In this document: positions 8,355-34,935 of the stretch, piece by piece
Layout of the letters: the number at the start of each line of letters is the position of its first letter
How positions within the stretch are numbered: the stretch's first letter is position 1
Source: Tunavirus T1
Length of the DNA: 48,822 nt
Strand: one strand, 5' to 3'
Sequence record: MN153797.1
The notes under the pieces: generated by a model
Told to the model about the DNA's origin: nothing
The model's database searches: none
What the model saw: the letters and a program-made list of their open reading frames with translations, nothing else
Made by a program: the position numbers and the translations under genes

Positions 8355-8377
8355 TGGTAAAATAGCACTAAATGTTA
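8355..8377 (+). promoter_or_regulatory. Extended -10 promoter (TGg-TAAAAT, 8355-8363) with box tagcactaaatgtta (8363-8377) over the predicted start site
   Basis: Read directly; precedes terminase small subunit gene. Confidence 0.45.
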
Positions 8378-8395
8378 AACAAAGAGGATGTATTT

Positions 8396-8920
8396 ATGAG
8401 TGAACCTAAGAACGCTCCCGTAGTCCAGGGTGGTAATTTCAAAGAGCTATACAAGAAAAAGTTTGGCACTGTACTCGCGAAAAACCGGGCTATGACGCCA
8501 GAGCAACTATTCGATCTGTCAGTGAAGTATTTCGAATGGGCCGAGGACAATGCGATCAAGGCGTCAGAATCAGCCAGCTTTCAGGGTGGCGTTTATGAGT
8601 CGCTTGTCCATAAGCCGCGCGTCTTCACCTGGACCGGATACCGACTATTCATCGGTGCAAGCGAGGCTGCAATCATTAAGTGGAAGCGAGAGGAAGAATA
8701 CAGCGAGGTTATGGAGTTTGTGGAATCGGTAATCAACGAGCAAAAATTCCAGCTTGCCGCCAACGGTGTTATTAATGCCTCCTTTATCGGTAAGGATCTC
8801 GGAATCGATAAGCCAGCCTCAATCAATATCGAAAACTCGTCAGCTTCCGCATCGACAGTAGTCGCCACTACTGAGGATGCGATGAAAGAGGCGGTAAACA
8901 GCATTCTTGATATGCTTTAA
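8396..8920 (+). CDS. terminase small subunit (positional call)
   Basis: Immediately upstream of terminase large subunit; ATG 8396 preceded by agagga. Confidence 0.5.
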   Translation: MSEPKNAPVVQGGNFKELYKKKFGTVLAKNRAMTPEQLFDLSVKYFEWAEDNAIKASESASFQGGVYESLVHKPRVFTWTGYRLFIGASEAAIIKWKREEEYSEVMEFVESVINEQKFQLAANGVINASFIGKDLGIDKPASINIENSSASASTVVATTEDAMKEAVNSILDML

Positions 8921-8959
8921 CTTTAGGGGCGCGAGAGCGCCCACATGGGAGACTTAATC

Positions 8960-10528
8960 ATGATTCAATGGGAAGACCTTAACGCAACGCAGAAGTTAGC
9001 GATCAAGAAAATGAGCGAGGCCAATTTCGAAAAAATGATTCGGATCTGGTTCCAACTTATGCAGGCGCAGCAGTTCCAGCCTAACTGGCATCACCTTTAC
9101 CTATGTCACGAAGTGGAGGAAATTATTGCAGGGCGGCGAGGGAATACAATCTTTAACGTCACACCAGGTTCCGGTAAAACTGAAGTGTTCTCAATTCACC
9201 TTCCGGTGTACGCAATGCTTAAGTGTAAGAAGGTGCGAAACCTTAACGTGTCGTTTGCTGACAGCCTGGTTAAGCGTAACAGTAAGCGCGTATGTGAGAT
9301 TATCAGCAGCAACGAATTTCAAGAGCTATGGCCTTGCAAGTTCGGTACATCGAAAGATGAGGAGATGCAGGTTCTTAACGAAGATGGAAAGGTTTGGTTT
9401 GAGTTGATATCCGCAGCGGCTGGCGGTCGTATTACTGGTTCGCGTGGTGGCTACATGACGCCGGGATTCTCGGGGATGGTAATGCTAGACGATATCGACA
9501 AGCCTGATGATATGTTCTCAAAGGTTAAGCGTGAGCGTACGCACATGCTATTGAAAAACACCATCCGTTCCCGTCGTATGCATAACGAGACGCCTATTAT
9601 TGCAATTCAGCAGCGACTACATGCTCAGGATTCAACCTGGTTCATGATGAATGGCGGTATGGGTATTGAGTTTGACCAAATCTCAATACCGGCGCTGGTG
9701 ACGGAAGAATACGGAAAGACACTTCCTGATTGGTTGCAGCCTTACTTTGAGCGTGATGTTTTATCGTCTGAGTATGTAGAATTGGATGGCGTTAAGCATT
9801 ACTCTTTTTGGCCAAGCAAGGAAAGCGTTCACGACCTGTTGGCGTTACGAGAAGCAGATCAGTATACCTTTGATTCTCAGTATCAGCAGAAACCGATCGC
9901 GCTGGGTGGCTCCGTGTTTAACTCAGAGTGGTGGACTTATTACGGCAGCAGTCTTGACGCTGACGAGCCAGATCCGGGTAAATATGATTACCGATTCATC
10001 ACTGCCGATACCGCTCAGAAGACAGGCGAGCTAAACGACTACACGGTATTTTGTTTGTGGGGCAAGAAGAATGATAAGGTTTACTTTATCGACGGCATTC
10101 GCGGAAAGTGGGAAGCGCCGGATATGGAGAGGCAATTTACAGCTTTCGTCAATCAGGCATGGAGGCACAATAAATCAATGGGGGTACTTCGTAAAATTTA
10201 TGTGGAAGATAAGGCGAGCGGTACGGGCTTAATCCAGAACCTCAGGAAAAAGACCCCGATCTCAATCACTCCATTGCAGCGTAACAAAGACAAAGTTACC
10301 CGAGCTATGGATGCTCAGCCAGTTATTAAAGCCGGGCGCGTGGTTCTGCCAGAAGAGCACCCTATGCTTGCTGAAATTATCGCTGAACACAGTGCCTTCA
10401 CTTACGATGACACCCATCCGCATGATGATATCGTCGATAACTTCATGGATGCGGCGAACATCGAATTGCTGACCATTGATGATCCTATCGAGAGAATGAA
10501 GCGACTCGCCGGGATGGTTAAGCGGTAA
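8960..10528 (+). CDS. terminase large subunit
   Basis: 527-aa ORF with terminase-like ATPase and nuclease regions (family recognised from sequence); ATG 8960 has RBS gggaga, ORF-track start 8945 is the alternative. Confidence 0.75.
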   Translation: MIQWEDLNATQKLAIKKMSEANFEKMIRIWFQLMQAQQFQPNWHHLYLCHEVEEIIAGRRGNTIFNVTPGSGKTEVFSIHLPVYAMLKCKKVRNLNVSFADSLVKRNSKRVCEIISSNEFQELWPCKFGTSKDEEMQVLNEDGKVWFELISAAAGGRITGSRGGYMTPGFSGMVMLDDIDKPDDMFSKVKRERTHMLLKNTIRSRRMHNETPIIAIQQRLHAQDSTWFMMNGGMGIEFDQISIPALVTEEYGKTLPDWLQPYFERDVLSSEYVELDGVKHYSFWPSKESVHDLLALREADQYTFDSQYQQKPIALGGSVFNSEWWTYYGSSLDADEPDPGKYDYRFITADTAQKTGELNDYTVFCLWGKKNDKVYFIDGIRGKWEAPDMERQFTAFVNQAWRHNKSMGVLRKIYVEDKASGTGLIQNLRKKTPISITPLQRNKDKVTRAMDAQPVIKAGRVVLPEEHPMLAEIIAEHSAFTYDDTHPHDDIVDNFMDAANIELLTIDDPIERMKRLAGMVKR

Positions 10529-10544
10529 TAAATGAGATATAATT

Positions 10545-10570
10545 AGGGCTGTCAATTGACGGCCCTTTTT
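10545..10570 (+). terminator. Possible rho-independent terminator or attenuator
   Basis: Hairpin agggctgtc-aatt-gacggccct then TTTTT. Confidence 0.45.
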
Positions 10571-10582
10571 ATTGGAGGAAAC

Positions 10583-11866
10583 ATGAAAATTGTTAAGCAT
10601 GATGGATATAACGATATCTTTAACGGCGGCGCGGACGGATCGACTAAGCCATTCTTTATGTCTGATGCATCATATCACGTCGGTTCTTTCTACAACGACA
10701 ACGCAACCGCGAAGCGAATTGTGGATGTTATCCCGGAAGAGATGGTGACGGCTGGTTTTAAAATGTCAGGCGTTAAGGATGAAAAAGAGTTCAAGTCTTT
10801 ATGGGATAGCTACAAACTTGATTCAAGTCTGGTGGATCTTCTTTGTTGGGCACGACTTTACGGTGGCGCGGCGATGGTGGCAATCATCAAAGACAACCGG
10901 ATGTTAACCAGTCAGGCAAAGCCTGGAGCTAAACTTGAAGGCGTCCGAGTTTATGATCGATTTGCTATCACTGTTGAAAAGCGAGTCACCAATGCAAGAT
11001 CTCCTCGCTATGGTGAGCCTGAAATTTACAAGGTATCCCCTGGCGACAATATGCAGCCGTACCTGATTCATCACTCAAGAGTCTTTATTGCTGATGGTGA
11101 ACGAGTGGCGCAACAGGCAAGAAAGCAGAATCAAGGATGGGGAGCTTCGGTATTGAATAAGTCACTGATTGATGCAATCTGTGACTATGATTACTGTGAA
11201 TCTCTGGCTACTCAGATCTTGCGACGTAAGCAACAGGCTGTATGGAAGGTCAAAGGTCTTGCCGAAATGTGTGATGATGATGATGCTCAGTATGCCGCGC
11301 GCCTGCGACTTGCTCAGGTAGATGATAACTCCGGCGTAGGCCGTGCGATCGGTATCGATGCTGAGACTGAGGAATATGACGTTCTCAACTCTGATATCAG
11401 CGGAGTCCCTGAGTTCTTATCAAGCAAGATGGACCGCATCGTCTCCCTATCCGGGATTCATGAGATTATCATCAAGAATAAGAACGTAGGCGGCGTATCA
11501 GCGAGCCAAAACACAGCGCTTGAGACTTTCTATAAGCTAGTCGATCGCAAGCGCGAGGAAGATTACAGGCCGCTTCTTGAGTTCTTGTTGCCGTTCATTG
11601 TTGATGAGGAAGAGTGGTCGATCGAGTTTGAGCCTTTGTCTGTTCCGAGTAAGAAAGAGGAATCAGAGATCACGAAGAATAACGTTGAGTCAGTCACGAA
11701 GGCTATCACTGAGCAAATCATCGATCTGGAAGAAGCTCGCGACACGTTGCGATCCATTGCCCCTGAGTTCAAACTCAAGGATGGTAATAACATCAACATT
11801 CGCGAACCGGAAGAAACAACCGAACCGGAGCCGGGATTAGGGGAGAAGTTAGAAGATGAAAATTAA
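10583..11866 (+). CDS. portal protein
   Basis: About 430 aa directly after terminase large; RBS GGAGG before ATG 10583. Confidence 0.7.
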   Translation: MKIVKHDGYNDIFNGGADGSTKPFFMSDASYHVGSFYNDNATAKRIVDVIPEEMVTAGFKMSGVKDEKEFKSLWDSYKLDSSLVDLLCWARLYGGAAMVAIIKDNRMLTSQAKPGAKLEGVRVYDRFAITVEKRVTNARSPRYGEPEIYKVSPGDNMQPYLIHHSRVFIADGERVAQQARKQNQGWGASVLNKSLIDAICDYDYCESLATQILRRKQQAVWKVKGLAEMCDDDDAQYAARLRLAQVDDNSGVGRAIGIDAETEEYDVLNSDISGVPEFLSSKMDRIVSLSGIHEIIIKNKNVGGVSASQNTALETFYKLVDRKREEDYRPLLEFLLPFIVDEEEWSIEFEPLSVPSKKEESEITKNNVESVTKAITEQIIDLEEARDTLRSIAPEFKLKDGNNINIREPEETTEPEPGLGEKLEDEN

Positions 11867-12617
11867 TGGCGTTGCAACACAGTGGCGCTATCCTGAAATG
11901 AGCGAGCGCGCAATGTCGCGCTCCCTACAGGATGTTGCAGCCAAACTAACTGAAAAAATGCGTGACGAATTAAAGCCGATGAAATTTGACGCTACCGACG
12001 AAGAGATAGATCAGACAGAGAGGTCATTGCTTGATTACGTCGAATCACTCATCGCTCCGATTATTGGTTCTCTATCATCCGTTGCGCTCACGATCTATAA
12101 ATTCAACTCTAAGCAGTGGCTGCGCATCGCTCGCAATGCTGGAGGTAAGAAGAATCAAGCCGTGATGCTACTTGCCCTGATTGGTCCTACCGCTGCCGAA
12201 AGCTGGTACTCAGGACAATATAATCTGTGGCGATCGCAGGTTGCTACTTCTATCAGGAAATTTGCCGCCAACATGGTTACTGATTTCACTGATAAACTTC
12301 GTGCGGCATCCGGTCAGGGTAAAAGCAAGGATTTTGTTGTTGAACTTGCTAAGGAGCGATTTGGTATTTACCGGAACTGGGCCAAAAATAGAGCGTCGGG
12401 AATTGTCGGAACCTGGAACAGTAGACTGATGCGTCAGCGCATAAAAGACGCTGGTGTCTCTTACTATTTCTGGCGCGGGGTGATGGATTTACGCGAACGT
12501 GAAAAACATGTAAGATGGGAAGGTAAGCGCATAGCGGTAGATTCCGATCATGTATTCCCTGGTGAGGAATACAACTGCCGCTGTTGGGCTGTTCCAGACT
12601 TTTCTACAGGAGATTAA
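11856..12617 (+). CDS. minor head / head morphogenesis protein
   Basis: Position after portal; 253-aa ORF. Confidence 0.55.
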   Translation: MKINGVATQWRYPEMSERAMSRSLQDVAAKLTEKMRDELKPMKFDATDEEIDQTERSLLDYVESLIAPIIGSLSSVALTIYKFNSKQWLRIARNAGGKKNQAVMLLALIGPTAAESWYSGQYNLWRSQVATSIRKFAANMVTDFTDKLRAASGQGKSKDFVVELAKERFGIYRNWAKNRASGIVGTWNSRLMRQRIKDAGVSYYFWRGVMDLREREKHVRWEGKRIAVDSDHVFPGEEYNCRCWAVPDFSTGD

Positions 12618-12619
12618 AA

Positions 12620-13732
12620 ATGAAGGCAAAGCAAAGATTCGATTCAGTAAAAATCAAGGCGCACTTTGATGATAACGGTTTTTTAGTTGACCGCCCAATC
12701 GTGGCGCGAATCGGCGCTCAGGTTTACAAAACGCCGCACGGCGATCGAGTTGAGTTCCGTCCGGCGTCCGAAGTTTTCAAGCAAGACTCCTTGCAAAGTT
12801 TTGCGGGTAAGCCAATTACTGTCGGTCACGTAACGGTAACTCCGCAGAATGCTAAAGACGTTGTTGTCGGATCGTGTGCTGGCGCTGGTATTGCTTCAGG
12901 GGTTGGCGTTGAAGTTCCTTTGAGTATTTACAGCGACTACGCGATCAGCAAGGCTAAAGCAAAAGAAGCAGGTGAATTATCTGTTGGTTATACTTCGGTT
13001 GATATTGATAAGCCTGGTTGGGGTTCAAATGAGACTGGAGAATATATCTTCGAAGAGGATATGAAACAGGACGAAGCGCCGCCTGAAGGTTGGGTGAGAT
13101 TCGACGCGGTACAAACTAATATCAAGGTCAACCATATTGCCCTAGTTTTTAAAGGTCGTGCGGGAATTGCTAAATTAAATCTTGATGCCGAACAGGAGTT
13201 CCCGTATGATAATAACGTTCAATTAACTAACGAGGACAAGCAAATGAAAAAAATTAAGATCGACTCAGTTGATGTGGAAGTAACCGAAGACGTTGCGAAC
13301 CATATCGAAAAATTAACCGCGCAGATTGCCAACATTCAGGGGAAAGCTGATGGCTTCGAAGCTGAGCGCGATGCGCTGAAGGTTAAGGTTGACTCTCTGC
13401 CGGAACTTGTGAAGGCCGAGGTAGAGAAGCAAAAAGCCGATGCCGCCGCACGCGCAGAAGTTACCGCAGTAGCAGAAACCGCAGGCGTCAAACATGATGG
13501 TCTTGATATCAAAGACGTCAAGATTGCCGTAGTTAAAGCCATGCTTGATAAAGATGTTAGTGAAAAATCAGACGCATATATCGACGCTATGTTTGATGTT
13601 GCTAAAGATTCTGATATCATGGCTATTCAGCGTAAAGCAGTAAAAGGCGACTCTATCGAAGGCGGTAAGCCGGAAGAGAAAAACGACGCCGCGCCTGTTA
13701 CGCCAAATTCACGTTTAAGCAAAGTAATGTAA
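12620..13732 (+). CDS. putative scaffolding / prohead protease-like protein
   Basis: Internal ATG of ORF 12584..13732 with RBS caggag; coiled-coil, charged C-terminal half; sits between portal and capsid. Confidence 0.45.
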   Translation: MKAKQRFDSVKIKAHFDDNGFLVDRPIVARIGAQVYKTPHGDRVEFRPASEVFKQDSLQSFAGKPITVGHVTVTPQNAKDVVVGSCAGAGIASGVGVEVPLSIYSDYAISKAKAKEAGELSVGYTSVDIDKPGWGSNETGEYIFEEDMKQDEAPPEGWVRFDAVQTNIKVNHIALVFKGRAGIAKLNLDAEQEFPYDNNVQLTNEDKQMKKIKIDSVDVEVTEDVANHIEKLTAQIANIQGKADGFEAERDALKVKVDSLPELVKAEVEKQKADAAARAEVTAVAETAGVKHDGLDIKDVKIAVVKAMLDKDVSEKSDAYIDAMFDVAKDSDIMAIQRKAVKGDSIEGGKPEEKNDAAPVTPNSRLSKVM

Positions 13733-13743
13733 GGGGAAATATC

Positions 13744-14220
13744 ATGGCACAAATTAATGCATCTTATCAGCGAGATATGGCGATTGCGCTTCCGGGTATG
13801 GTTGCGGATACTTCAAAGTACAATATTGACGGCGCTTGTGTCGTTAATGAAGGTGATGTTCTTGTTGGCGCTGCCGTACAAGTTGTTCAAGCTCAGGCGG
13901 TTGATGGTCATAAGTTGGTTAAGGCTCTTACTACCGGAACCACTCCTTACGGCGTGGCAATCCGATCTCACTGGCAGACTGTTAACGCTCAAAATCAGAT
14001 GATTTACGAAGATGGCGGCGCTATCAACGTGATGACTTCAGGCCGAGTATGGATGCTTTCCAAATCCACCGAAGCGCCAACTTTCGGCTCTGCCGTTAAA
14101 CTTGATGTTGATGGTCAGGAAAAATCTGATGGCACGATCGAAACAACCTGGACCTACGCTGGCGGTTGGATTAAATACAAAGATATTCAGCTTGTTGAGG
14201 TTCAGTTGCATCAACTGTAA
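13744..14220 (+). CDS. putative head decoration protein (paralog A)
   Basis: Shares N-terminal motif (S/T)xYNIDGACV..G(A/S)AVQVV with the next ORF; sits just upstream of major capsid gene. Confidence 0.4.
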   Translation: MAQINASYQRDMAIALPGMVADTSKYNIDGACVVNEGDVLVGAAVQVVQAQAVDGHKLVKALTTGTTPYGVAIRSHWQTVNAQNQMIYEDGGAINVMTSGRVWMLSKSTEAPTFGSAVKLDVDGQEKSDGTIETTWTYAGGWIKYKDIQLVEVQLHQL

Positions 14221-14236
14221 TTAGCGTTTAATATGG

Positions 14237-14267
14237 GGACTATCCTTTTTTGGATAGTCCTTTTTTT
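14237..14267 (+). terminator. Rho-independent terminator
   Basis: Hairpin ggactatcc-tttttt-ggatagtcc then T7. Confidence 0.65.
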
Positions 14268-14281
14268 ATGGAGAAATCATT

Positions 14282-15049
14282 ATGGCTTACGAAAATTTAA
14301 TGTTGCGCCCGGCGTGTCCGGGAAATCTTTCTGATACTTCAACCTACAATATTGATGGCGCTTGCGTGGCTCAAGGTGACATTGAGTTCGGCTCAGCGGT
14401 TCAGGTTGTCGGCATCGTTGATGGTGTAAAAGTTGTTACGGCGCTTTCTGATGGTGGAACTCCTTACGGTATCGCTTTCCGTTCCCAATATGAACACCTG
14501 ATCGGTAAAATCCTCGACGGTGAAGTGTGCAACGTCGTTTCTCACGGTCGCGTGTGGGCGCTTACTTCTCTTGATGAGGCTCCCAGCTTGTTCTCAAAGT
14601 TGCAGTTTGGATCTGGTGGGGTTGTTACTGGTGGATCTGGTTACGCAGGATGGACCTTTGCTGGCGGCTTTGTTAAGCACGAAGATGGCTACATTATTGA
14701 GGTTCGGGTGAAACAAAATGCTTTCATCGTTCCACCGCCGCCGCCCCCTGTCGTTCTTGTTGAATCCGCTACAATCACCACTGACAAGGAAAGCCCTCAG
14801 CCAAACAACGTTACGATCCAGTGTGTAGCTAATGCTCTTCCGGCTAATGCAACTGATAAGACTGGCAAATGGTCAATCGACGCTACCAATATCGCCACTG
14901 TCAATCCGGACTCAGGTCTTGTAACTCCTGTTGGTGGAGAGGTAGTCGGTGATTTCAATATTACCTGGACGGCTAACGATGCCAGCAAGACGACGGCAAC
15001 CATTGCTTATCGCGTAGAAGCAGTGCCAACGCCAGAGGTTGATGTATAA
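14282..15049 (+). CDS. putative head decoration protein (paralog B) with polyproline linker and C-terminal Ig-like domain
   Basis: N-terminus paralogous to 13744..14220; PPPPPPVV linker; C-terminal region resembles bacterial Ig-like domains. Confidence 0.45.
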   Translation: MAYENLMLRPACPGNLSDTSTYNIDGACVAQGDIEFGSAVQVVGIVDGVKVVTALSDGGTPYGIAFRSQYEHLIGKILDGEVCNVVSHGRVWALTSLDEAPSLFSKLQFGSGGVVTGGSGYAGWTFAGGFVKHEDGYIIEVRVKQNAFIVPPPPPPVVLVESATITTDKESPQPNNVTIQCVANALPANATDKTGKWSIDATNIATVNPDSGLVTPVGGEVVGDFNITWTANDASKTTATIAYRVEAVPTPEVDV

Positions 15050-15060
15050 CATAAAAACAC

Positions 15061-15089
15061 TTTGACGCTTTAACAAAAAGTGCTATTAT
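15061..15089 (+). promoter_or_regulatory. Sigma70-like promoter (TTTGAC, 17 bp, TATTAT) with box taacaaaaagtgcta inside the spacer
   Basis: Read directly; box at 15071-15085. Confidence 0.45.
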
Positions 15090-15094
15090 TGAAG

Positions 15095-15119
15095 CCGTGA
15101 ACATAATCACGGTTTTTTA
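15095..15119 (+). terminator. Leader hairpin plus T-run between promoter and major capsid gene (possible attenuator)
   Basis: ccgtga-acataa-tcacgg then TTTTTT. Confidence 0.45.
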
Positions 15120-15139
15120 TTAACTATGGAGAAGTAATC

Positions 15140-16099
15140 ATGACTACTAAAAAATTTGATGAAGCAGATAAAAGCAATGTTGAAATGTATCTGATCCAGG
15201 CTGGCGTAAAACAGGATGCGGCCGCAACGATGGGTATCTGGACCGCTCAGGAACTACACCGCATCAAAAGCCAGTCCTATGAAGAAGACTACCCGGTCGG
15301 CTCAGCTTTACGCGTATTCCCGGTTACAACCGAGCTTTCTCCGACCGACAAGACGTTTGAGTATATGACCTTTGATAAGGTTGGTACGGCTCAGATTATC
15401 GCAGACTACACCGACGATCTTCCGCTGGTTGATGCCCTGGGTACTTCTGAATTTGGCAAGGTGTTCCGTCTTGGTAACGCGTACCTGATCTCAATCGACG
15501 AAATCAAAGCGGGTCAGGCAACTGGTCGCCCACTGTCAACCCGTAAGGCGAGTGCGTGCCAGTTGGCGCATGATCAGCTTGTTAACCGCCTGGTGTTCAA
15601 AGGTTCCGCGCCGCACAAGATTGTGTCCGTGTTCAACCATCCGAATATCACCAAAATTACCTCTGGTAAGTGGATTGATGTATCTACTATGAAGCCGGAA
15701 ACTGCGGAAGCTGAGCTAACTCAAGCGATCGAAACCATCGAGACGATTACTCGTGGTCAGCACCGCGCAACCAACATCCTGATCCCGCCTTCCATGCGTA
15801 AGGTTTTGGCGATTCGTATGCCTGAGACAACCATGTCTTACCTGGACTATTTTAAGTCTCAGAACTCCGGTATCGAAATCGACTCTATCGCAGAGCTTGA
15901 GGATATTGACGGCGCAGGCACCAAAGGCGTACTGGTGTACGAAAAGAATCCGATGAACATGTCCATCGAGATCCCGGAAGCATTTAACATGCTGCCAGCA
16001 CAACCGAAAGACTTGCACTTTAAAGTGCCTTGCACCTCTAAGTGTACTGGTCTTACAATTTATCGCCCGATGACTATTGTCTTAATCACTGGCGTGTAA
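15140..16099 (+). CDS. major capsid protein
   Basis: 319-aa ORF in canonical position with strong RBS ggagaag; followed by a strong terminator. Confidence 0.65.
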   Translation: MTTKKFDEADKSNVEMYLIQAGVKQDAAATMGIWTAQELHRIKSQSYEEDYPVGSALRVFPVTTELSPTDKTFEYMTFDKVGTAQIIADYTDDLPLVDALGTSEFGKVFRLGNAYLISIDEIKAGQATGRPLSTRKASACQLAHDQLVNRLVFKGSAPHKIVSVFNHPNITKITSGKWIDVSTMKPETAEAELTQAIETIETITRGQHRATNILIPPSMRKVLAIRMPETTMSYLDYFKSQNSGIEIDSIAELEDIDGAGTKGVLVYEKNPMNMSIEIPEAFNMLPAQPKDLHFKVPCTSKCTGLTIYRPMTIVLITGV

Positions 16100-16106
16100 T
16101 ATTATA

Positions 16107-16134
16107 GGGGCTAACTTAGTTAGTCCCTTTTTTT
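16107..16134 (+). terminator. Rho-independent terminator
   Basis: Hairpin ggggctaac-tta-gttagtccc then T7. Confidence 0.65.
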
Positions 16135-16149
16135 ATTGGAGAAATCAAA

Positions 16150-16437
16150 ATGGCTAAAGAAAAAACTGTTGTTATCGTAAACGTTGGTGTAGCTCTTCAG
16201 ATGTTCCGTCTTGAAGATGGTTCCTTTGCTAAAGTTCTTCCAGATGAAGAGGTCACGCTTCCGGCGTCCGTTCTTGATTTACCTGGTCTGCGTTGCTTAA
16301 TTGCTCGCGAAGAAATCGAAGTTAAAGACGACAGTGCAACCAACCGCAAAATCCGCGCTGAAATGGCAAAGATCACGAAGCCAGATCCGTGGGATAAAAT
16401 GAGCGTAAAAGAGCTTGAAGACGGCGGCGAATATTAA
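16150..16437 (+). CDS. hypothetical protein
   Basis: ORF track; RBS ggagaa. Confidence 0.45.
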   Translation: MAKEKTVVIVNVGVALQMFRLEDGSFAKVLPDEEVTLPASVLDLPGLRCLIAREEIEVKDDSATNRKIRAEMAKITKPDPWDKMSVKELEDGGEY

Positions 16438-16443
16438 TCATCA

Positions 16444-16469
16444 AGGCGCTCATGTAGCGCCTTTTTTTA
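16444..16469 (+). terminator. Rho-independent terminator
   Basis: Hairpin aggcgct-catgt-agcgcct then T7. Confidence 0.65.
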
Positions 16470-16481
16470 TGGTGGTAAATT

Positions 16482-16892
16482 ATGAATCAAGAAACTTTAA
16501 TTGCAGTTGTTGAGCAAATGCGAAAGCTGGTTCCGGCACTTCGTAAGGTTCCAGACGAAACGCTTTATGCGTGGGTAGAAATGGCTGAGCTTTTTGTATG
16601 CCAGAAGACCTTTAAAGACGCATACGTCAAAGCGCTCGCTCTTTATGCATTGCACCTTGCTTTCCTTGACGGGGCGCTAAAAGGTGAAGATGAGGATCTG
16701 GAATCGTACTCACGACGAGTTACGTCATTCTCCCTGAGCGGTGAATTTAGCCAGACTTTCGGAGAGGTTACAAAGAACCAGTCAGGAGACATGATGCTTT
16801 CGACGCCGTGGGGTAAGATGTTCGAACAGCTTAAAGCGCGACGCCGTGGTCGATTCGCATTAATGACAGGACTCCGTGGAGGATGCCACTAA
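16482..16892 (+). CDS. head-tail connector / head completion protein (positional)
   Basis: ORF track; position between capsid and tail genes. Confidence 0.4.
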   Translation: MNQETLIAVVEQMRKLVPALRKVPDETLYAWVEMAELFVCQKTFKDAYVKALALYALHLAFLDGALKGEDEDLESYSRRVTSFSLSGEFSQTFGEVTKNQSGDMMLSTPWGKMFEQLKARRRGRFALMTGLRGGCH

Positions 16893-17263
16893 TGAACTAC
16901 TCACAGATTGAAAGGATGGCTCGCAAAGGTGTGGCTTTCTTCACCGATCCGTCAAGACCTATGAACCTGATAAAGCAAGGTGAATACGGATATGATGAAA
17001 ACGGATTCGAGATCCCACCGATGGAACAGGTTATTCCAATATCCGGCGCGACGCGAAGACCGAACGCGCGTGAGATTGACGGGGAAACCATCCGCGCCTC
17101 AGATATTTTGGGGATCTTCAATAATGATCATGAAATAAACGAAGGTGACTATATAGAGATTGATGGCATTCGTCATGTTGTCGTTGATGCTCGCCCGGTT
17201 CAGGCGTCACTGGAACCAGTTGCCTATCGTCCAGTATTGCGGAGGGTATCAGTCGGTGGCTAA
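16883..17263 (+). CDS. head-tail joining protein (positional)
   Basis: ORF track; overlaps upstream stop. Confidence 0.4.
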   Translation: MPLMNYSQIERMARKGVAFFTDPSRPMNLIKQGEYGYDENGFEIPPMEQVIPISGATRRPNAREIDGETIRASDILGIFNNDHEINEGDYIEIDGIRHVVVDARPVQASLEPVAYRPVLRRVSVGG

Positions 17264-17699
17264 TTATCAGATTCGTAGATTTCAAGGCGAGATTGATGCG
17301 TGGATTAATGCCGCTGAAAGCACGTTAGAACATGCTATTGAGATATTCGTAAGGGATGTTCACGACGCTCTTGTTAGCCGCTCCCCTGTTGATACAGGTC
17401 GATTCAAGGGTAACTGGCAGATAACTTTTAACGAAATCCCTAACCACGCATTAAACCGATACGATAAAACTGGCGGTGTCGTCAGGGGTGAGGAACAGGA
17501 AAAAACTTATGGCATGTTCAGCCGTGGCGGCGCGATAACATCCGTTCACTTTTCAAACATGTTGATTTATGCAAACGCTCTTGAGTACGGTCATTCACAG
17601 CAAGCACCGAGCGGCGTTGTCGGTCTTGTGGCGTTAAGGCTTAGATCATATATGGCTGACGCAATCAAGCAGGCAAGGAGACAGCAAAATGCACTATGA
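17256..17699 (+). CDS. neck / tail completion protein, probable GTG start
   Basis: GGAGGG at 17241-17246 then GTG 17256 in frame with ORF 17160..17699; overlaps upstream stop at 17261-17263. Confidence 0.4.
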   Translation: MANYQIRRFQGEIDAWINAAESTLEHAIEIFVRDVHDALVSRSPVDTGRFKGNWQITFNEIPNHALNRYDKTGGVVRGEEQEKTYGMFSRGGAITSVHFSNMLIYANALEYGHSQQAPSGVVGLVALRLRSYMADAIKQARRQQNAL

Positions 17700-18087
17700 G
17701 TTATCAGCGGCGGCGCGAGCCGCTTTTCTATCAAATTACAGAGACTTTCCTCACTACATGGAAAACAGAAATTTCACACCGCCGAAGGATGGCGGGATGT
17801 GGCTGAGGTTCAACTACATTGAAGGGGATACGCTTTATCTATCCATTGACAGAAAGTGTAAATCTTACATCGCAATCGTTCAGATCGGCGTAGTGTTCCC
17901 TCCAGGCTCCGGCGTTGACGAAGCAAGATTGAAAGCAAAAGAGATTGCTGATTTTTTCAAAGATGGTAAAATGCTTAACGTTGGTTATATTTTCGAGGGT
18001 GCAATCGTGCATCAAATTGTTAAACATGAAAGCGGGTGGATGATTCCGGTTCGCTTTACAGTACGAGTAGACACAAAGGAGACTTAA
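17689..18087 (+). CDS. tail terminator-like protein (positional)
   Basis: ORF track; immediately upstream of major tail gene. Confidence 0.4.
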   Translation: MHYELSAAARAAFLSNYRDFPHYMENRNFTPPKDGGMWLRFNYIEGDTLYLSIDRKCKSYIAIVQIGVVFPPGSGVDEARLKAKEIADFFKDGKMLNVGYIFEGAIVHQIVKHESGWMIPVRFTVRVDTKET

Positions 18088-18089
18088 TT

Positions 18090-18758
18090 ATGCACTTACC
18101 AAATGGCGCACAAATTTTCGTGGAAACCTCTCGCGGGGTAGAGGTTGAGGCAACCGCTATCACTAACGCAGAAAATCCTGTTGCTACAGTTGCATCTAAG
18201 GGTGACTTGGCAAAAGGTGATTACGTTATTGTAACTCAGTCAACTTGGGCAAAGATGGTTAGTCGAGTGCTAATTGTTACTGACGCTCAGGAAACAAGTA
18301 TCACTCTTGCTGGAATTGACACCTCCGATACTCTTGTTTTCCCGGCTGGCGGCACGATGAGCTTTGCAAAAATTACTGGCTGGACTGAGATCCCTTGCGT
18401 ACAGGAGATTGGTCAGGACGGCGGCGAGCAGCAGTATTACACTTATCAGTGTTTGTCCGACGATAAAGAGCAGCAGATCCCAACGTTTAAATCTGCGGTC
18501 TCGCTAACTTACACCTTCGCGCACGAATTTGATAACCCGATCTACCCGATTCTGCGCAAGCTGGATTCGTCTGGTCAGGTAACAGCGGTTCGAATGTACG
18601 TTCCGAAAGCGAGCGAAATGCGCATGTGGGCTGGCATCTTGTCGTTTAACGATATCCCATCCACGCAGGTTAACGAAATGGAAACGGTGGAACTCGCCGT
18701 ATCCCTGAAAGGTGACTTTACTTTCATCTCATCCACTCTGGCATCGCCTGGTGCTTAA
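18090..18758 (+). CDS. major tail protein
   Basis: ATG 18090 with RBS aaggag; directly upstream of G/GT chaperone and tape measure genes. Confidence 0.6.
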   Translation: MHLPNGAQIFVETSRGVEVEATAITNAENPVATVASKGDLAKGDYVIVTQSTWAKMVSRVLIVTDAQETSITLAGIDTSDTLVFPAGGTMSFAKITGWTEIPCVQEIGQDGGEQQYYTYQCLSDDKEQQIPTFKSAVSLTYTFAHEFDNPIYPILRKLDSSGQVTAVRMYVPKASEMRMWAGILSFNDIPSTQVNEMETVELAVSLKGDFTFISSTLASPGA

Positions 18759-18770
18759 ATACCATCCACA

Positions 18771-18790
18771 GGGGGCTTGCACCCCCTTAT
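18771..18790 (+). terminator. Possible terminator
   Basis: Hairpin ggggg-cttgca-ccccc then T-rich tract. Confidence 0.4.
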
Positions 18791-18834
18791 TCATTTCTGT
18801 AAAATCATCTTATCAACTTTATTCGATTAACTTT

Positions 18835-18849
18835 TAACAAAAAGTGCTA
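18835..18849. promoter_or_regulatory. TAGCA-N5-TGCTA box (taacaaaaagtgcta) about 22 bp upstream of the chaperone gene start
   Basis: Read directly; too close to ATG for the standard promoter geometry. Confidence 0.4.
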
Positions 18850-18871
18850 TCAACCAATCAGGAGAAACATC

Positions 18872-19189
18872 ATGGCTAAATTCAATTTCGTGTTGGGCCA
18901 GCTTCCAGACTTCAAACTTCCGGTGACGTTCACCATGCCAAACGGCGAGGATGCGACTATTATTTTTACAGCACGCCACCTTTCCAGTAAAGAAGTGCAA
19001 GATATGTATGCGAAGCAGGGCGAAATGAATGATAGCGATTTCATCACTAAGATAGCATCAGGATGGAATCTGGAAGAAGAATTTAACGAAGAGAATACGC
19101 GTAAGCTGGTACAGTATTATCCTTCCGCAGCGTACAATCTGACGGCAACTTACATCAAGGCGCTCGCCGGACACCGCGCAAAAAACTAA
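18872..19189 (+). CDS. tail assembly chaperone (G-like)
   Basis: Position between major tail and tape measure genes; ends at slippery site. Confidence 0.6.
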   Translation: MAKFNFVLGQLPDFKLPVTFTMPNGEDATIIFTARHLSSKEVQDMYAKQGEMNDSDFITKIASGWNLEEEFNEENTRKLVQYYPSAAYNLTATYIKALAGHRAKN

Positions 19190-19506
19190 AAAGGGCGGTT
19201 TATCTGTTATATCAGAAACCGCCAACAAAAGAGCAATTAAGATCGGTTGGCCTCAGTCTTTCTGACTATGAAGACGAGGAACCGGAAACGATAATCGGCG
19301 ATGCTGAAATGGTGAAGGCGTGGAATGTTTTTACGTCAATGCTCACTCAGTGGAGAAGTTCAGGCGCTGGAGCTTATGGTCTTGACTATAATGTTTTGCC
19401 TATGTTGTTCAAAATCTATAAAATAGAAGATGAAGAACTGGCATTGCAGGACGTTAGGATCATGGAAGCGAAAGCGCTTGAAATGATTGCTAAGCAAAAC
19501 AACTAA
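18872..19506 (+). CDS. tail assembly chaperone frameshift product (GT-like), -1 shift at A_AAA_AAC 19180-19186
   Basis: Hand translation shows the -1 frame open from 19171 to 19506 with no stop; canonical X_XXY_YYZ heptamer 1 bp before the G stop codon. Confidence 0.55.
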
Positions 19507-19528
19507 GCCGCCGTTTGGCGGTTTTTTC
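19507..19528 (+). terminator. Rho-independent terminator
   Basis: Hairpin ccgcc-gttt-ggcgg then T6. Confidence 0.55.
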
Positions 19529-19547
19529 GTATATAGGGGGGGGTTAT

Positions 19548-24995: not shown

Positions 24996-25007
24996 CGCCT
25001 GTATAAT
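24979..25007 (+). promoter_or_regulatory. Sigma70-like promoter overlapping the terminator (TTGCGC, 17 bp, TATAAT)
   Basis: -10 TATAAT at 25002-25007. Confidence 0.5.
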
Positions 25008-25043
25008 GAGTCCACCGATAAATAGCACAAAAAGGTAAACATC

Positions 25044-29602: not shown

Positions 29603-29625
29603 GCCCCTTGCGGGGCTTTTATTTT
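29603..29625. terminator. Bidirectional terminator between convergent genes
   Basis: gcccc-ttgc-ggggc with T-runs on both strands. Confidence 0.6.
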
Positions 29626-29851
29626 ATATCGAGCAATCGTGAGATTTGAAGTTTTTCTCTGATACATAGTTGAAGGAGAATGGGTATCCAGCACGCAATA
29701 CCATCTCCTTTCCGCGCATCTTAGATCCAAAAACGTAAACCGAGTACTCCGCGCCGCCTGATTCATAAATTGCCGTGCAAGTGCGCTCAGGCATCGATGA
29801 GCAACCAGTCAGGATGAATGCCGCAGCGATAACGGTGATTAACTTTTTCAT
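29624..29851 (-). CDS. cor: Cor-like small lipoprotein (candidate superinfection exclusion / receptor blocking)
   Basis: 75 aa; signal peptide MKKLITVIAAAFILTGC with lipobox LTGC; convergent with tail genes. Confidence 0.5.
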   Translation of the reverse strand: MKKLITVIAAAFILTGCSSMPERTCTAIYESGGAEYSVYVFGSKMRGKEMVLRAGYPFSFNYVSEKNFKSHDCSI

Positions 29852-30378
29852 TTGTATGTCCTCGTCGTTAGTGTGATTGCATTGTATGTCGCATTTACTT
29901 TTATTGCAATAGAGCGATTACAATTTTTTTCGTGTAACAGGCGTATATTTTTGTAACCGGAATGGGTGTTACAAAATCGCCTCCATCCGACCGCAGGGAG
30001 ATATGATAAAAACTCTATATAATATATATAGATAGATAATATTTAATTTTAGCTTTATATATATAATTATTGTTGTGTAACAGTTGTATATCGTGTAACA
30101 GGTGATTTGATTGATTCGTCAAATTTCTATCATGTATGTTCAAAATTTAATCAATCTGGATTCTATTTGTAGGTATCTCTGTATTTCTAATAAAAAGCGG
30201 TTACAAGTGTTACGCAATAGACAGCGCATAAAAATCTACTTAAGCCATTGATTCTGTTGATGCTGGTTGTAACTTGAGCAATATAGACACGCAATTACAC
30301 ACTGATTACATGTATTCGATTGACTAAACGCTGTTAATGGCTATAATGGATTCATCGTAAACGAAGGAGATAAACGCA
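29852..30378. promoter_or_regulatory. AT-rich divergent control region with repeated GTGTAACA-type motifs
   Basis: cgtgtaacag at about 29931, 30078, 30098; ggtgttaca at about 29955; gtgttacg at about 30210; poly-AT tracts 30010-30060. Confidence 0.45.
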
Positions 30379-31443
30379 ATGTTCCATGTATTCACATCAA
30401 GCCAGCTTTCTAACGACGAGTATCATAGAAACGAAGGTTGGGCGTCAGAGTATGTAAGCGGATCGAGTCTTGCAGAAATTTATCAGACCTGCCCTGCTAA
30501 CTGGAGATTCAAGAAGAACGAGACAACGAAAACTCTGGAGTTCGGTACTCAGTCGCACACCAACTTTGAGAGTCGAGATCTGTTTACTGCAACGTATGCT
30601 AGATGCCCTGCTCCGTCAGAGTTTAAGGATCTGATTACTTCGCAGGCGGCGCTGGCAGCAAAATTAAAATCATTCGGCCTGAAAGGTACATCCGGTAAGC
30701 AGTACCCGGACCTCATCAAAATGATGGTTGATTGTGGTGAAGAACTCAACGTTCAATACCTGATTGAACTGATCGCAGAAGCTGAGGCCCGTGCTGAAGG
30801 AAAACAACTTGTTGACGCGGACAAATACGACGCTTGCATGAAGATGAGAGTCATCCTTGAGCAGAATCCCGATCATGAAGCGTGCATCAACAGTGAAACG
30901 GCGCAGCGTGAGATTTCAATCTTCGGTGAGATATCCGGCGTAAAAGTTAAGGTTCGACTTGACCATCTGGACTACAAAGAGAATGTTCCAGGTCGTGTCC
31001 TGACTGGTTATGATGAGAATGGCGATCCGGTATTTGAAGACGTAATTTTCCCGGAAGCACTGATTATCACAGATTTCAAAACTACGATGAGCGCCAACCC
31101 GTTAGAGTTCCCGAGACTGGCATACAATCACGGCTATTACCTGAAGATGGCATTGCAGCATGACCTGCTACGACGCGCAATCCAGGCTGGAGCTTTTGAA
31201 GGTAACTTCCCGGAAGACATTCCGATCGTGGTTCGATTGCTTGCGCAGGAGAAAAAAGAGCCTTATATCGCACTGGCTTACCGTATGACTATGGAGCAAA
31301 TCAGGATAGGTCGTAACCAGTACATTAGCGTAGTCCACACTTACAAGGCTTGCTCTGAAATGGATGTTTGGCCTGGGTACGCTGGCGACGCAAGCGAGAT
31401 CGAACTTGAAACGCCATCATGGGTGCGTTACCAAAATAAGTAA
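30379..31443 (+). CDS. recombination exonuclease (PD-(D/E)XK, RecB/RecE-like)
   Basis: Motif IITDFKTT resembles RecB-family (I/V)xDYKT; sits upstream of Erf and SSB. Confidence 0.5.
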   Translation: MFHVFTSSQLSNDEYHRNEGWASEYVSGSSLAEIYQTCPANWRFKKNETTKTLEFGTQSHTNFESRDLFTATYARCPAPSEFKDLITSQAALAAKLKSFGLKGTSGKQYPDLIKMMVDCGEELNVQYLIELIAEAEARAEGKQLVDADKYDACMKMRVILEQNPDHEACINSETAQREISIFGEISGVKVKVRLDHLDYKENVPGRVLTGYDENGDPVFEDVIFPEALIITDFKTTMSANPLEFPRLAYNHGYYLKMALQHDLLRRAIQAGAFEGNFPEDIPIVVRLLAQEKKEPYIALAYRMTMEQIRIGRNQYISVVHTYKACSEMDVWPGYAGDASEIELETPSWVRYQNK

Positions 31444-31517
31444 ACGGCATAAATAGCTAAACAAATAATTAATGAGGTGTTATAATGCACCTCATACACC
31501 AATCAGGAGAAGTTAAG

Positions 31518-32165: not shown

Positions 32166-32211
32166 TCATCAGGGAGGCTTAGGTCGCCCATAAAATTTAG
32201 GAGAGAAAAAC

Positions 32212-32634: not shown

Positions 32635-32640
32635 AGAGAA

Positions 32641-32662
32641 GCCCCGCATTGCGGGGCTTTTT
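32641..32662. terminator. Bidirectional terminator between convergent ssb and tail fiber
   Basis: gccccgc-att-gcggggc then TTTTT. Confidence 0.6.
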
Positions 32663-32695
32663 ATTACTTCATCTCAATTGCCTTCGGAAATGAGT

Positions 32696-34312
32696 CTACG
32701 TATTTTTTAAGCTTTCAACAAACTCTCCAGATACCATTCTTTCATGATTTCTTTTGCACTCTTCAACCTTCTTGTTGTAAATCGAGTCATTAGGCATCTC
32801 AACTCGAACGCTAACAAAAACATCACTCGGAATGTCAATAGGATCTCCGTCGCTATACCCATCCTTATGATTTCTTGCGAATGAAGGCGCGTTATCATGA
32901 GTTCTATGATAAGTCTTGATAACCAAAGACCCATCAGGGTTAACATCATAATCTACCCACAATATAGGCTGTCCGTTAATGTCTTTTGGTATCTCTATGC
33001 CACCATTAACACCACCCCACGCTAGATCAGAATTTAGTGATAAACACCCCCTTATCAAATACTCGCCAGTAGAAATCCTCTCAACTGTACAACCTTCGCT
33101 CTCGTCGTTTGTTCTATGGCTCCCGTTGCCAAAAATATCAACGATGGGCGAGGCTCTTTTTATAAATCCGTTAGAGTCAACGGTTGTATTGCCTGTATTC
33201 CATATAACCTGGGTAGATTGCCATTGCCCCGCTCCTGTCTGTTTTCTGAGCCTCACATCCTTATAGTGTGGAGAGGTCATTGATGCGTCTTCAATAACAA
33301 AACCGAAAGCACTACCATCTCCTTGACCGTTTCTATGACGAACAGATATAGCTGTGACCCATCCAACAGAATTAACATTGTAACTTGCAAGGCTGCTAGG
33401 CTGAGATGATAAGGCGTTAACATAATCTACCCAGCTTGATTTCTCGTTAGATGCCGGACTTGATACAACGTTACCGGAAGAACTTGCCTGAAACGGTATC
33501 CACGGAGAAAACTTTGCATTATTGCCGTTTTTCATCCTTATGTAAAAAGTGCCGCGACCCGCTCTTGCGTATTCGTTTTGAGAATTTCCAGATTCTGGGT
33601 CAGTACCCAAATAAGTAAAAGGCGTAAATCTCTGAATGCAAGCGCTTGCACCGTTAGCTCCATTAGGAAGAACCTCAAGCATACCTGCCGTAGCCTCAGG
33701 ATAGCCCCTACTAGCGGTAGCTAAAGCACTTGATGATTGCATATATATTCCAGGGCCATCACCTTCACCAGTTATTGAATCAAGATGTTTTTCCCCTAAG
33801 TTAGTTCTATCAAGTTTGTAAACCTTTAGGCTTGTCCTTGCCTGCTCCTCGGTAGTTCCACCAGTGCCACCAAAATTAACCCCTAGAGCCTTGTTTTCAC
33901 TTCCATCATGAGTCATGGCGCCCCAGTCGCCGCTATCCTTGACGATCAGCTTAAATCCGGTCCTATCGTCATTTGAATAGATTTCCGTTAAATCTCCGCG
34001 AGGTTGATTTAATCTATTTACTGCTAGATTTTTCTTTGATTGCTCCTTGTCAGCAAGGCCAGAAAGATTTCCGTCCTTAGTTAAAAGATTGTCAGCATTA
34101 ACGCTATTTGCTGCGTCCTGAGCTTCCTGAGCACTTACCGCTGCCGCGTCTTTAGCGCTAACCGCCGCATCGCGTGCTGCCTGGGCATCGTTTTTTGCTG
34201 AGGTTGCAGTTTGCGCCGCAGTCTGAGCATCATTAACATAGCCAGATAGATCGCCTTTAGCGTCATTAATTTCTTGAACGATATTGTTCAGTGTCCATAT
34301 CAAGATCGGCAA
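32696..34312 (-). CDS. tail fiber protein, C-terminal fragment (no ATG, no RBS; TTG is the first in-frame start)
   Basis: 538-aa ORF; N-terminus repeats the C-terminus of 34412..34867; Ala/Gln-rich coiled region then Gly/Ser/Asn-rich distal domain. Confidence 0.6.
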   Translation of the reverse strand: MPILIWTLNNIVQEINDAKGDLSGYVNDAQTAAQTATSAKNDAQAARDAAVSAKDAAAVSAQEAQDAANSVNADNLLTKDGNLSGLADKEQSKKNLAVNRLNQPRGDLTEIYSNDDRTGFKLIVKDSGDWGAMTHDGSENKALGVNFGGTGGTTEEQARTSLKVYKLDRTNLGEKHLDSITGEGDGPGIYMQSSSALATASRGYPEATAGMLEVLPNGANGASACIQRFTPFTYLGTDPESGNSQNEYARAGRGTFYIRMKNGNNAKFSPWIPFQASSSGNVVSSPASNEKSSWVDYVNALSSQPSSLASYNVNSVGWVTAISVRHRNGQGDGSAFGFVIEDASMTSPHYKDVRLRKQTGAGQWQSTQVIWNTGNTTVDSNGFIKRASPIVDIFGNGSHRTNDESEGCTVERISTGEYLIRGCLSLNSDLAWGGVNGGIEIPKDINGQPILWVDYDVNPDGSLVIKTYHRTHDNAPSFARNHKDGYSDGDPIDIPSDVFVSVRVEMPNDSIYNKKVEECKRNHERMVSGEFVESLKNT

Positions 34313-34330
34313 TAATATCCATGCCGATGC
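34197..34330. repeat. Direct repeat copy A (134 bp) of tail fiber coding sequence
   Basis: Matches 34418-34555 except three small indels (agt/tgag, gtg/gttg, cca/ccaa). Confidence 0.8.
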
Positions 34331-34355
34331 AGATTAGTGATAGCCTTGTCGGTTG

Positions 34356-34402
34356 CTGAATAAATAAAAAAAATAGGGGCCCCCCCCCCCTTTTTTATTC
34401 AG
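34356..34402. other. Palindromic element ctgaataaa-taaaaaaaa-tagggg-C11-ttt-tttattcag between the two repeat copies
   Basis: Inverted arms 34356-34364 and 34394-34402; homopolymers A8, G4, C11, T6 read directly. Confidence 0.8.
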
Positions 34403-34411
34403 ATAGACACG

Positions 34412-34867
34412 TCACGTGCTGAGGTTGCTGAGTTGCGCCGCAGTCTGAGCATCATTAACATAGCCAGATAGATCGCCTTTAGCGTCATTAATTTCTTGAA
34501 CGATATTGTTCAGGTTGTCCATATCAAGATCGGCAATAATATCCAATGCCGATGCGATCTCAGTCTCTTTGCTCTGGTAGTACCGAAGCGTCTCAGCGAC
34601 GTTTTGCGCAAGACCGTTAACGGTCAATGAATCGTTAAGCAAGATCACATACTTACCGTCAGCGGCAGTCTGACCATCCGTAGAGATAGCCTTTAGCTCT
34701 GTGTCGCTCACAATGTCGCTGATTACCGCCAGTTTAATTGGTTGCTCCAGGAATACGATAGTTGCACCGACTCGAATCAGAGCAAGCTGATCTTTCCATT
34801 TTGTATCGGTTCCGTGAACCGTACCGTCTGCATCCATTGATGCAGTACCGCGTCTATATAAAGCCAT
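34412..34867 (-). CDS. tail fiber protein, N-terminal fragment (151 aa) ending just after repeat copy B
   Basis: ATG 34867 with RBS aaggag; C-terminal ..LNNIVQEINDAKGDLSGYVNDAQTAAQ duplicated at start of 32696..34312. Confidence 0.55.
   Translation of the reverse strand: MALYRRGTASMDADGTVHGTDTKWKDQLALIRVGATIVFLEQPIKLAVISDIVSDTELKAISTDGQTAADGKYVILLNDSLTVNGLAQNVAETLRYYQSKETEIASALDIIADLDMDNLNNIVQEINDAKGDLSGYVNDAQTAAQLSNLST
34418..34555. repeat. Direct repeat copy B (138 bp) of tail fiber coding sequence
   Basis: See copy A. Confidence 0.8.
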
Positions 34868-34888
34868 AGTATAAACTCCTTAAGTAAA

Positions 34889-34935
34889 TAGCACGAATTG
34901 CTAAGCAATGATTTTATCATTGTGATACCTGCCTT
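34889..34935 (-). promoter_or_regulatory. Sigma70-like promoter for tail fiber (minus: TTGCAA, 17 bp, TAAAAT) with box tagcacgaattgcta over the predicted start site
   Basis: Read on minus strand: cattgcaaggcaggtatcacaatgataaaat then box at 34889-34903. Confidence 0.45.

Follow-up and report, generated by a model that had tools for sequence, protein, structure and literature searches.

Bacteriophage T1 (Tunavirus T1) belongs to the seven classic T phages, and the T1-like phages, the Drexlerviridae, form a large family used in therapy against E. coli and Klebsiella. Here we describe a 15-bp box in the T1 sequence record MN153797.1, which was analysed over its whole stretch of 48,822 nucleotides (nt), hereafter the window. 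Its positions 8000-20000 align end to end with the three T1 records in GenBank at 99.9% identity. The box reads TAGCAC-N4-TG(T/C)TA, a near-palindrome of TAGCA-N5-TGCTA, and is found both in front of early genes and at the late promoters of the terminase (terS), the major capsid protein (MCP), the G chaperone and the tail fibre (gp53); gene names are those of the annotated T1 record AY216660 (48,836 bp, 14 bp more than the window). We lean towards the view that the box is the binding site of a phage regulator, probably a dimer of the protein Pir, which would activate transcription from position -42 and occlude RNA polymerase at late promoters.

The closest described element is a repeat of phage TLS. 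The re-annotation of this phage in 2024 lists 18 intergenic copies of aaATAGCACnnnTTGnTAAAA, about 76 nt 5' of start codons, and states that similar repeats exist in T1, Rtp and Rogue1 (PMC11447400). Stoperator, enhancer or UP-like roles were suggested there, and the function of the repeat was named an open question; the supplementary table includes a copy at the MCP promoter on the opposite strand (DR7) and a degenerate copy 5' of a J-like gene (DR8) (PMC11447400). The T1 box is the same element with an identical consensus, and the central-base classes A, T and G are all present in T1. While the early T1 copies fit the placement described for TLS, the late copies depart from it: their distance to the start codon is 18-55 nt, they overlap core promoters or come after them, and they are reversed relative to the gene at MCP, G and gp53. 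The TLS paper contains neither a fixed 22-nt spacing to the -10 hexamer nor an antisense promoter at G. The element itself is thus already published; what seems to be new is the reading by position, together with the antisense promoter at G.

Published work also provides a candidate regulator. Laganenka et al. reported that T1 Orf23 (Pir), produced alone in phage-free E. coli, activates Pdam and Phol (PMC6737242). In their reporters Pir represses its own promoter and PrecE, and Porf65 was Pir-independent; a binding site was not defined (PMC6737242).

The mechanism that we propose, one helix-turn-helix protein whose sign of action is set by the position of its site, is of a textbook class. The lambda repressor CI, bound at OR2 near -42, activates PRM, and the same operators let it repress PR. 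The T1 model resembles this system in its Cro/CI-type helix-turn-helix candidate, its dyad site, activation from about -42 and repression through overlap with the core promoter, and the pir/helicase gene pair shares the divergent promoters and the autoregulation of the CI/OR layout. T1 differs in that it is virulent, uses single sites instead of cooperative triplets, carries them at about 22 scattered places and has mostly targets without a -35; Pir moreover differs from CI in conserved N- and C-terminal segments unrelated to CI. A second resemblance is to Mor and C of phage Mu and to class II promoters of CRP and FNR, where a dyad at about -42/-43 also stands before a -10 without usable -35, read by the host sigma70 polymerase. 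Half-site spacing is 5-5-5 in the T1 box, 5-6-5 for CRP and 5-4-5 for FNR, and site sequence and protein family differ as well. The sites of Mor and C are not known to serve also as operators at late promoters.

The box and its standard promoter layout

The exact pattern TAGCACNNNNTGYTA occurs in 15 copies in the window, where dinucleotide-preserving shuffles predict 0.05; with up to two mismatches allowed, there are 36 box copies against 11.9 expected. A version of the pattern with an N5 gap had no match in the window, the actual gap being N4. We built a weight matrix from the T1 box copies and their flanks (consensus aAATAGCACnnnTTGyTAAAAc), which splits the T1 genome cleanly into 22 sites scoring at least 19 and a remainder scoring 13.8 or lower. 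Its most informative positions are the G/C bases of TAGCAC and TGYTA, in dyad arrangement. The copies at terS, MCP, G and gp53, to which an earlier note made from the sequence alone had drawn attention, are all present. They score 26.8-30.8, within the main group of 22 sites, and are therefore full members of the box set; they match the 21-nt consensus of the T1-like repeat over its full length, flanks included, and identical sequences stand in the TLS table.

Conservation was followed in two family samples from IMG/VR, 63 loci around MCP homologues (57-100% identity) and 79 loci around helicase homologues (42-100% identity). In 249 of the 429 distinct exact boxes in these loci, a TAnnnT hexamer starts exactly 22 nt past the box, compared with 3 in the control orientation. 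If transcription is assumed to start 7 nt after the hexamer, this spacing places the box at -49 to -35, with its centre at -42. Our literature search found no usable transcriptome or mapped start sites for T1 or other Drexlerviridae. By inspection, a -35-like hexamer at usable distance (16-18 nt from the -10) is absent from these standard modules. Among the T1 boxes with at most one mismatch, 15 of 21 have TAnnnT 22-23 nt downstream, 14 of them at exactly 22 and one (47604) at 23, which bears out the earlier note's placement of the box at -42 of early genes. The weaker boxes before the primase gene and gene 66 obey the same spacing, and altogether about 16 T1 promoters combine a box at -42 with a missing -35. 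The standard layout is a family-wide rule across the T1-like phages, and its highest-scoring T1 example is the dam promoter:

38940-38954, plus strand: dam promoter box, at -42, top matrix score 33.5, with CATTAT at +22

Class II activator sites are centred near -41.5. This is the position of the box in the early modules and in the antisense module at G described below, not at terS, MCP or gp53. Dependence on an activator is documented by the published reporters for Pdam with Pir (PMC6737242).

The box was also compared with four known kinds of element, each of which was rejected. Sigma54 promoters (TGGCAC-N5-TTGCW) have GG and GC doublets 10 nt apart, whereas the box has AG, halves 2 nt closer together and a sigma70 -10 at 22 nt. 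The T4 MotA-box (TGCTT) is centred at -30, 11-13 nt from the -10, and the box spacing is 22 nt, not about 12. UP elements are A/T-rich stretches at -40 to -60 without dyad, whereas the information of the box lies in G/C bases arranged as a dyad. Stoperators of the L5 type are asymmetric, keep one orientation and lie within transcription units; the box is near-palindromic and mostly a promoter element, and relative to transcription it points forward at terS and J and is reversed at MCP, G, gp53 and pir. What the box has in common with L5 stoperators is a short site repeated many times in small intergenic gaps, with some copies inside transcribed leaders (G and pir), but stoperators act on elongation and belong to a lysogenic repressor.

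Several further features of the standard modules were observed. At 1451-1453, 2270-2272, 3536-3538 and 6532-6534, the initial TAG of the box doubles as stop codon for the gene upstream, so that gene and module are separated by zero nucleotides. Stable hairpins (-11 to -19 kcal/mol, z -3 to -5) hold the -10 hexamer in or at their loop in 12 of 15 standard T1 box promoters, for example at 1466-1513, 2285-2332, 3551-3598, 4880-4927 and 6547-6594 and, on the minus strand, at 47040-47087 and 47556-47603. The arms of these hairpins vary in sequence among the copies, and the family mean over 200 distinct modules is z -2.9. Folding energy alone separated real modules from shuffles; the count of helices spanning the -10 did not (64% versus 58%). 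Only read-through RNA or single-stranded DNA could adopt such a hairpin. In the promoters of primase (35908-35980, minus strand), gene 61 (39978-40020) and the HNH gene 65 (41958-42000), an annotated intrinsic terminator sits between box and -10, or encloses the -10, and thus overlaps the next promoter. A high-scoring box at the left end (105-119) breaks the 22-nt rule; its position is class I-like, about 60 nt ahead of the transcription start at a TTGATT-17-TATGAT promoter.

Box copies at the late promoters

The capsid promoter carries the box within its spacer:

15062-15067, plus strand: MCP promoter -35 TTGACG, best sigma70-like match in 8200-19000 (10/12 + TG)
15071-15085, minus strand: box at the MCP promoter, reading TAACAAAAAGTGCTA on the plus strand and occupying the promoter spacer
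15084-15089, plus strand: MCP promoter -10 TATTAT, from the sequence and the promoter scan
15091-15121, plus strand: MCP leader hairpin and T-run, an annotated terminator beginning 2-5 nt past the -10

The earlier note had described a capsid promoter with a box-filled spacer, followed by a leader hairpin with a T-run. Both are real; we read the promoter as TTGACG-16-TATTAT with a TG motif (15062-15089). Here the box spans -25 to -11, its GTGC providing the TG of the extended -10 and its final TA beginning the -10 hexamer. Of 59 distinct upstream regions (MCP identity 57-100%), 57 carry it, 56 of them in the same orientation, and the arrangement of A-tract, TTGACg or TTGCAC, 3 nt, box and TAtcaT is kept family-wide. 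The lineage at 57% identity has a palindrome with a GAAT spacer, TAGCAATTCGTGCTA, in the same place; what is conserved at this position is therefore the box and not a particular spacer sequence. The leader hairpin (15091-15116) folds with -12.6 kcal/mol (z -3.0) and is conserved, 5 of its 9 pairs showing compensatory changes. Since the terminator begins only 2-5 nt past the -10, transcripts from the MCP promoter would lack part of its 5' arm and might escape a terminator that halts read-through from upstream.

A close T1 relative, IMGVR_UViG_2974611450 (locus L051, 9930-10001; MCP 84-87% identical), has a broken MCP box in which GTGCTA is changed to GTGTGGA, and it still encodes Pir. This natural variant might serve for testing the role of the box.

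At the terminase and tail fibre genes, the box lies further downstream in the promoter:

8320-8344, plus strand: intrinsic terminator ending the left-arm early genes, from the terminator scan and annotated in AY216660; present in all lineages, just 5' of the terS promoter
8355-8363, plus strand: terS promoter, extended -10 TGgTAAAAT, usable -35 absent
8363-8377, plus strand: terS box TAGCACTAAATGTTA, at about -7 to +8, 18 nt from the ATG at 8396
34911-34939, minus strand: gp53 tail fibre promoter TTGCAA-17-TGaTAAAAT, from the promoter scan (9/12 + TG)
34889-34903, palindrome without strand: gp53 box TAGCACGAATTGCTA, 7 nt after the -10, at about +1 to +15, 21 nt from the ATG at 34867

As the earlier note had claimed, the terS box overlaps the extended -10, sharing its first T with the last T of TAAAAT, and covers the start site. 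It is present in 15 of 51 distinct upstream regions, always in a single orientation (15/15) and confined to terS identities of at least 70%; TGnTATAAT follows the terminator in every lineage examined, with or without box. The gp53 promoter with a box just downstream was likewise found as that note described it, its -35 reaching 34939, 4 nt past the note's limit of 34935. Half of the distinct gp53 upstream regions (31/62) have the box, with the GTGCTA half always gene-proximal (31/31). In Klebsiella lineages it is absent and the leader is shorter. The promoter itself is conserved as TTGC..-17-TGcTATAAT across lineages with and without box. Late promoters are thus conserved even where the box is missing, so that the box is an add-on to working promoters. 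At MCP, terS and gp53, it overlaps the core promoter or start site or sits just past the start, a placement typical of operators.

The box 5' of the G chaperone gene does not have this operator-type placement over a core promoter:

18777-18805, plus strand: rightward G-operon promoter, with TTGCAC (18777-18782) in the loop of the major tail protein terminator, 17 nt and TAAAAT (18800-18805)
18807-18812, minus strand: antisense -10 TAAGAT, exactly 22 nt from the G box
18835-18849, minus strand: G chaperone box, the same sequence as the MCP copy, 22 nt from the ATG at 18872

In all lineages, box-bearing or not, a -10 hexamer (TAAAAT, TAGAAT or TAATAT) lies 3' of the major tail protein terminator, and the terminator-adjacent TTGC-17-(-10) arrangement is likely the G promoter. 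Relative to this rightward promoter the box lies at about +23 to +37; for a leftward promoter, it lies at -42. The box is present in 30 of 50 distinct upstream regions, and box-less lineages have a leader about 35 nt shorter. In all 30 box-bearing lineages a TAnnnT hexamer stands on the opposite strand at 22 nt, with variable middle bases (TAAGAT, TACAGT, TAGCAT, TATCAT and others). The earlier note had counted this copy among the repressor-like ones on account of its position 22 nt from the ATG. The position stands, but since the standard layout recurs on the opposite strand in 30/30 lineages, the G copy is better described as a box-dependent predicted antisense promoter than as a simple operator. 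This is a property of the G site: an antisense -10 at +22 was sought at the other late boxes and found in 2 of 57 at MCP, 0 of 15 at terS and 0 of 31 at gp53. Beyond the antisense start there is a 21-codon minus-strand open reading frame (18794-18729), which is not conserved in relatives.

The antisense -10 (18812-18807) is only 1 nt away from the rightward -10 (18800-18805), and two open complexes would therefore exclude each other. Two known systems resemble this site: in phi29, one bound regulator, p4, switches polymerase between adjacent promoters, and in lambda the CII-activated antisense promoter paQ damps late genes. The 1-nt distance between the T1 -10 hexamers, unlike the situation in phi29 and at paQ, would make the effect one of direct promoter competition rather than antisense RNA pairing.

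A fifth late copy is degenerate:

25023-25037, plus strand: degenerate late box TAGCACAAAAAGGTA, matrix score 9.7, between a conserved TATAAT and the ATG of the J-like gene gp45

In this J-like promoter (25002-25043) TATAAT follows a terminator and is itself followed by aaATAGCACAAAAAGGTAAAC, and the right half of the box is fused with the gp45 ribosome-binding site. The arrangement is kept in T1 relatives and in TLS, where it is DR8.

Candidate binding proteins and competing explanations

The pir gene and its shared promoter region comprise:

35965-36417, minus strand: pir (Orf23, CPTT1_056), candidate box-binding helix-turn-helix regulator, from its open reading frame, weak Pfam matches, phrog_2856 and published activity
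36431-36445, plus strand: box common to pir (in the leader) and the helicase gene (at -42), in a family-conserved layout
36468-36497, both strands: divergent overlapping promoters, pir TTGAAT-17-TATAAT on the minus strand (36497-36469, 10/12) and helicase -10 TATTAT on the plus strand (36468-36473)

The -10 hexamers of the two promoters share bases as gTATTATAc, which is conserved, and the pir/helicase box is our reference example for two effects exerted from a single site. Pir matches phrog_2856 'transcriptional regulator' at 2e-76; its Pfam matches to P22_Cro (23.6 bits, cut-off 30.2) and YdaS (19.5, cut-off 30) are both below cut-off, its best solved-structure match is P22 Cro (E = 0.84), and a GenBank note gives an HHpred match of 97% to P22 C2. 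The best-conserved parts of the protein lie outside the predicted helix-turn-helix, in an N-terminal basic segment (DKRxxNGNNGTRRGKDKKxRKR) and a C-terminal one (GCxGYRASFCRPDLRFDSNGK), neither of which belongs to an assigned family.

Judging from sequence together with the published reporter data, Pir is probably the protein that binds the box. Pdam bears the top-scoring box at -42 and Ppir a leader box, both as the model expects, and the box is the sole element common to the two fragments; a search of the four Pir-responsive fragments with exact 8-mers and with 9- to 12-mers carrying 1-2 mismatches found no other common motif. The suggestion of the earlier note that one factor could activate one class of promoters and repress another agrees with the published data on these two box-bearing promoters, one activated and one repressed by Pir (PMC6737242). 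It does not account for Phol and PrecE, which respond to Pir and have no box, or for Porf65, which has a box and is reportedly Pir-independent. Pir homologues occur in 824 phage records, and helicase-related contigs without Pir are also without genuine boxes. Orf65, the other published T1 regulator, was considered as a general binder and rejected: it has no domain match and occurs in only 66 phage records against the 824 of Pir, and therefore cannot be the family-wide binder.

A number of observations weigh against our favoured reading. The best matrix scores in the Pir-activated Phol and the Pir-repressed PrecE are -11.8 and -5.0, and Porf65 has a good box at -42 (score 28.8); this box has T where TGYTA shows a near-invariant G, which may explain the Pir-independence of Porf65. 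The predicted recognition helix of Pir varies by lineage (SNQTVQGW, SNSLLTIW, SHATLYEW) while the box is constant. Co-distribution was tried as a test to single out Pir and failed, as gp70 and gp73 (830 and 823 phage records) are as widespread as Pir and are missing, along with Pir and the boxes, from the same distant helicase lineage. The late promoters of gene 42 and hol have no box, and an early, autoregulated repressor alone fails to account for the switch-on of late promoters.

Some of these points feed an alternative in which the logic of the sites is the same but the binder is gp70 (possibly a winged-helix protein), gp73 or a host factor, with Pir exerting its effects via other routes. 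We consider this unlikely. The invariant gp70 helix R.FAS..SKEF..R could read DNA, as opposed to the variable helix of Pir, and Pir does control two box-less promoters and not the box-bearing Porf65. Against this stands the sufficiency of Pir alone, in phage-free cells, for repression of Ppir and for activation of Pdam, which has no -35 and the box as its sole notable upstream element; gp70 and gp73, moreover, have neither a family annotation nor an experimental record. We are aware of no E. coli factor whose site reads TAGCA-N5-TGCTA, which counts against a host factor. A quite different mode of action, in which boxes near start codons would function within the mRNA leader, as translational operators or RNA structures instead of as DNA sites, appears to us very improbable. 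The boxes at terS, G, gp53 and J do lie 6-22 nt from the start codon, beside the ribosome-binding site, but the MCP box precedes the start site and the terS box straddles it, folding of the predicted leader RNAs gives no structure (0 and -1.2 kcal/mol, no better than shuffles), the same sequence works untranscribed at -42 elsewhere, and its dyad symmetry fits a protein dimer on DNA.

It is also conceivable, if quite doubtful, that the late boxes do not repress, being relics of copied promoter modules inserted near late promoters or serving to tune, insulate or even assist late transcription, while timing follows from genome copy number or terminator read-through. The boxes at terS, G and gp53 resemble lineage-specific insertions between promoter and ribosome-binding site, many lineages being box-less; the box-less promoters of gene 42 and hol fit this explanation too, and if an early protein repressed the most abundant virion protein, there is no obvious way in which that repression would be lifted. 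What speaks against this explanation is the near-universal MCP box (57/59), which has kept one position and orientation over 57-100% MCP identity despite a central-base change, the constant orientation at each of the other sites (gp53 31/31, G 30/30, terS 15/15) and the retention of the whole 21-nt consensus with its flanks at the late sites. A site at -25 to -11 of an optimally spaced promoter is, in addition, hard to square with activation.

A second repeat family lies in the cor-recE intergenic region (29830-30380), with TCGTGTAACAGG in three copies, GTTACAA inverted repeats and a TATATATA tract, 5' of a near-consensus recE promoter (TTGACT-17-TATAAT). A second regulator might bind in this region, or replication might originate there.

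Proposed regulation and its meaning for T1-like phages

In the reading that we favour, with Pir as the dimeric binder, Pir would be produced immediately from its own sigma70 promoter. At the approximately 16 promoters without a -35, the bound protein would replace -35 recognition in the style of a class II activator. The structural operons, in contrast, have conserved host-type promoters, mostly with extended -10, beside terminators, and there the bound protein would exclude RNA polymerase from the spacer and -10 at MCP, from the start site at terS and from +1 to +15 at gp53. The box of pir lies in the leader and is simultaneously the -42 site of the divergent helicase promoter. At G, an occupied box would direct polymerase against the G promoter through promoter competition or transcriptional interference. 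We infer three parts of this scheme, namely the binding of Pir to the box, the repression at late sites and the promoter competition at G.

A more far-reaching and rather improbable extension is that a single small regulator and a single 15-bp site carry the entire timing programme of T1-like phages, as a replication-counting switch. The regulator would move polymerase from -35-dependent promoters to the approximately 16 box promoters, many of which have their -10 in a hairpin loop. Occlusion would silence its own promoter and those of the structural genes, and at the tail operon the regulator would fire a promoter that runs head-on into the sense one. Release of the late genes would come only once replicated sites outnumber the supply of the autoregulated protein. 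If true, such a switch would need no sigma factor, antiterminator or new polymerase.

Our analysis makes the published open question of the repeat's function directly testable. If the proposed regulation is true, it would provide the first regulatory map for the Drexlerviridae as well as compact phage-controlled promoter parts.

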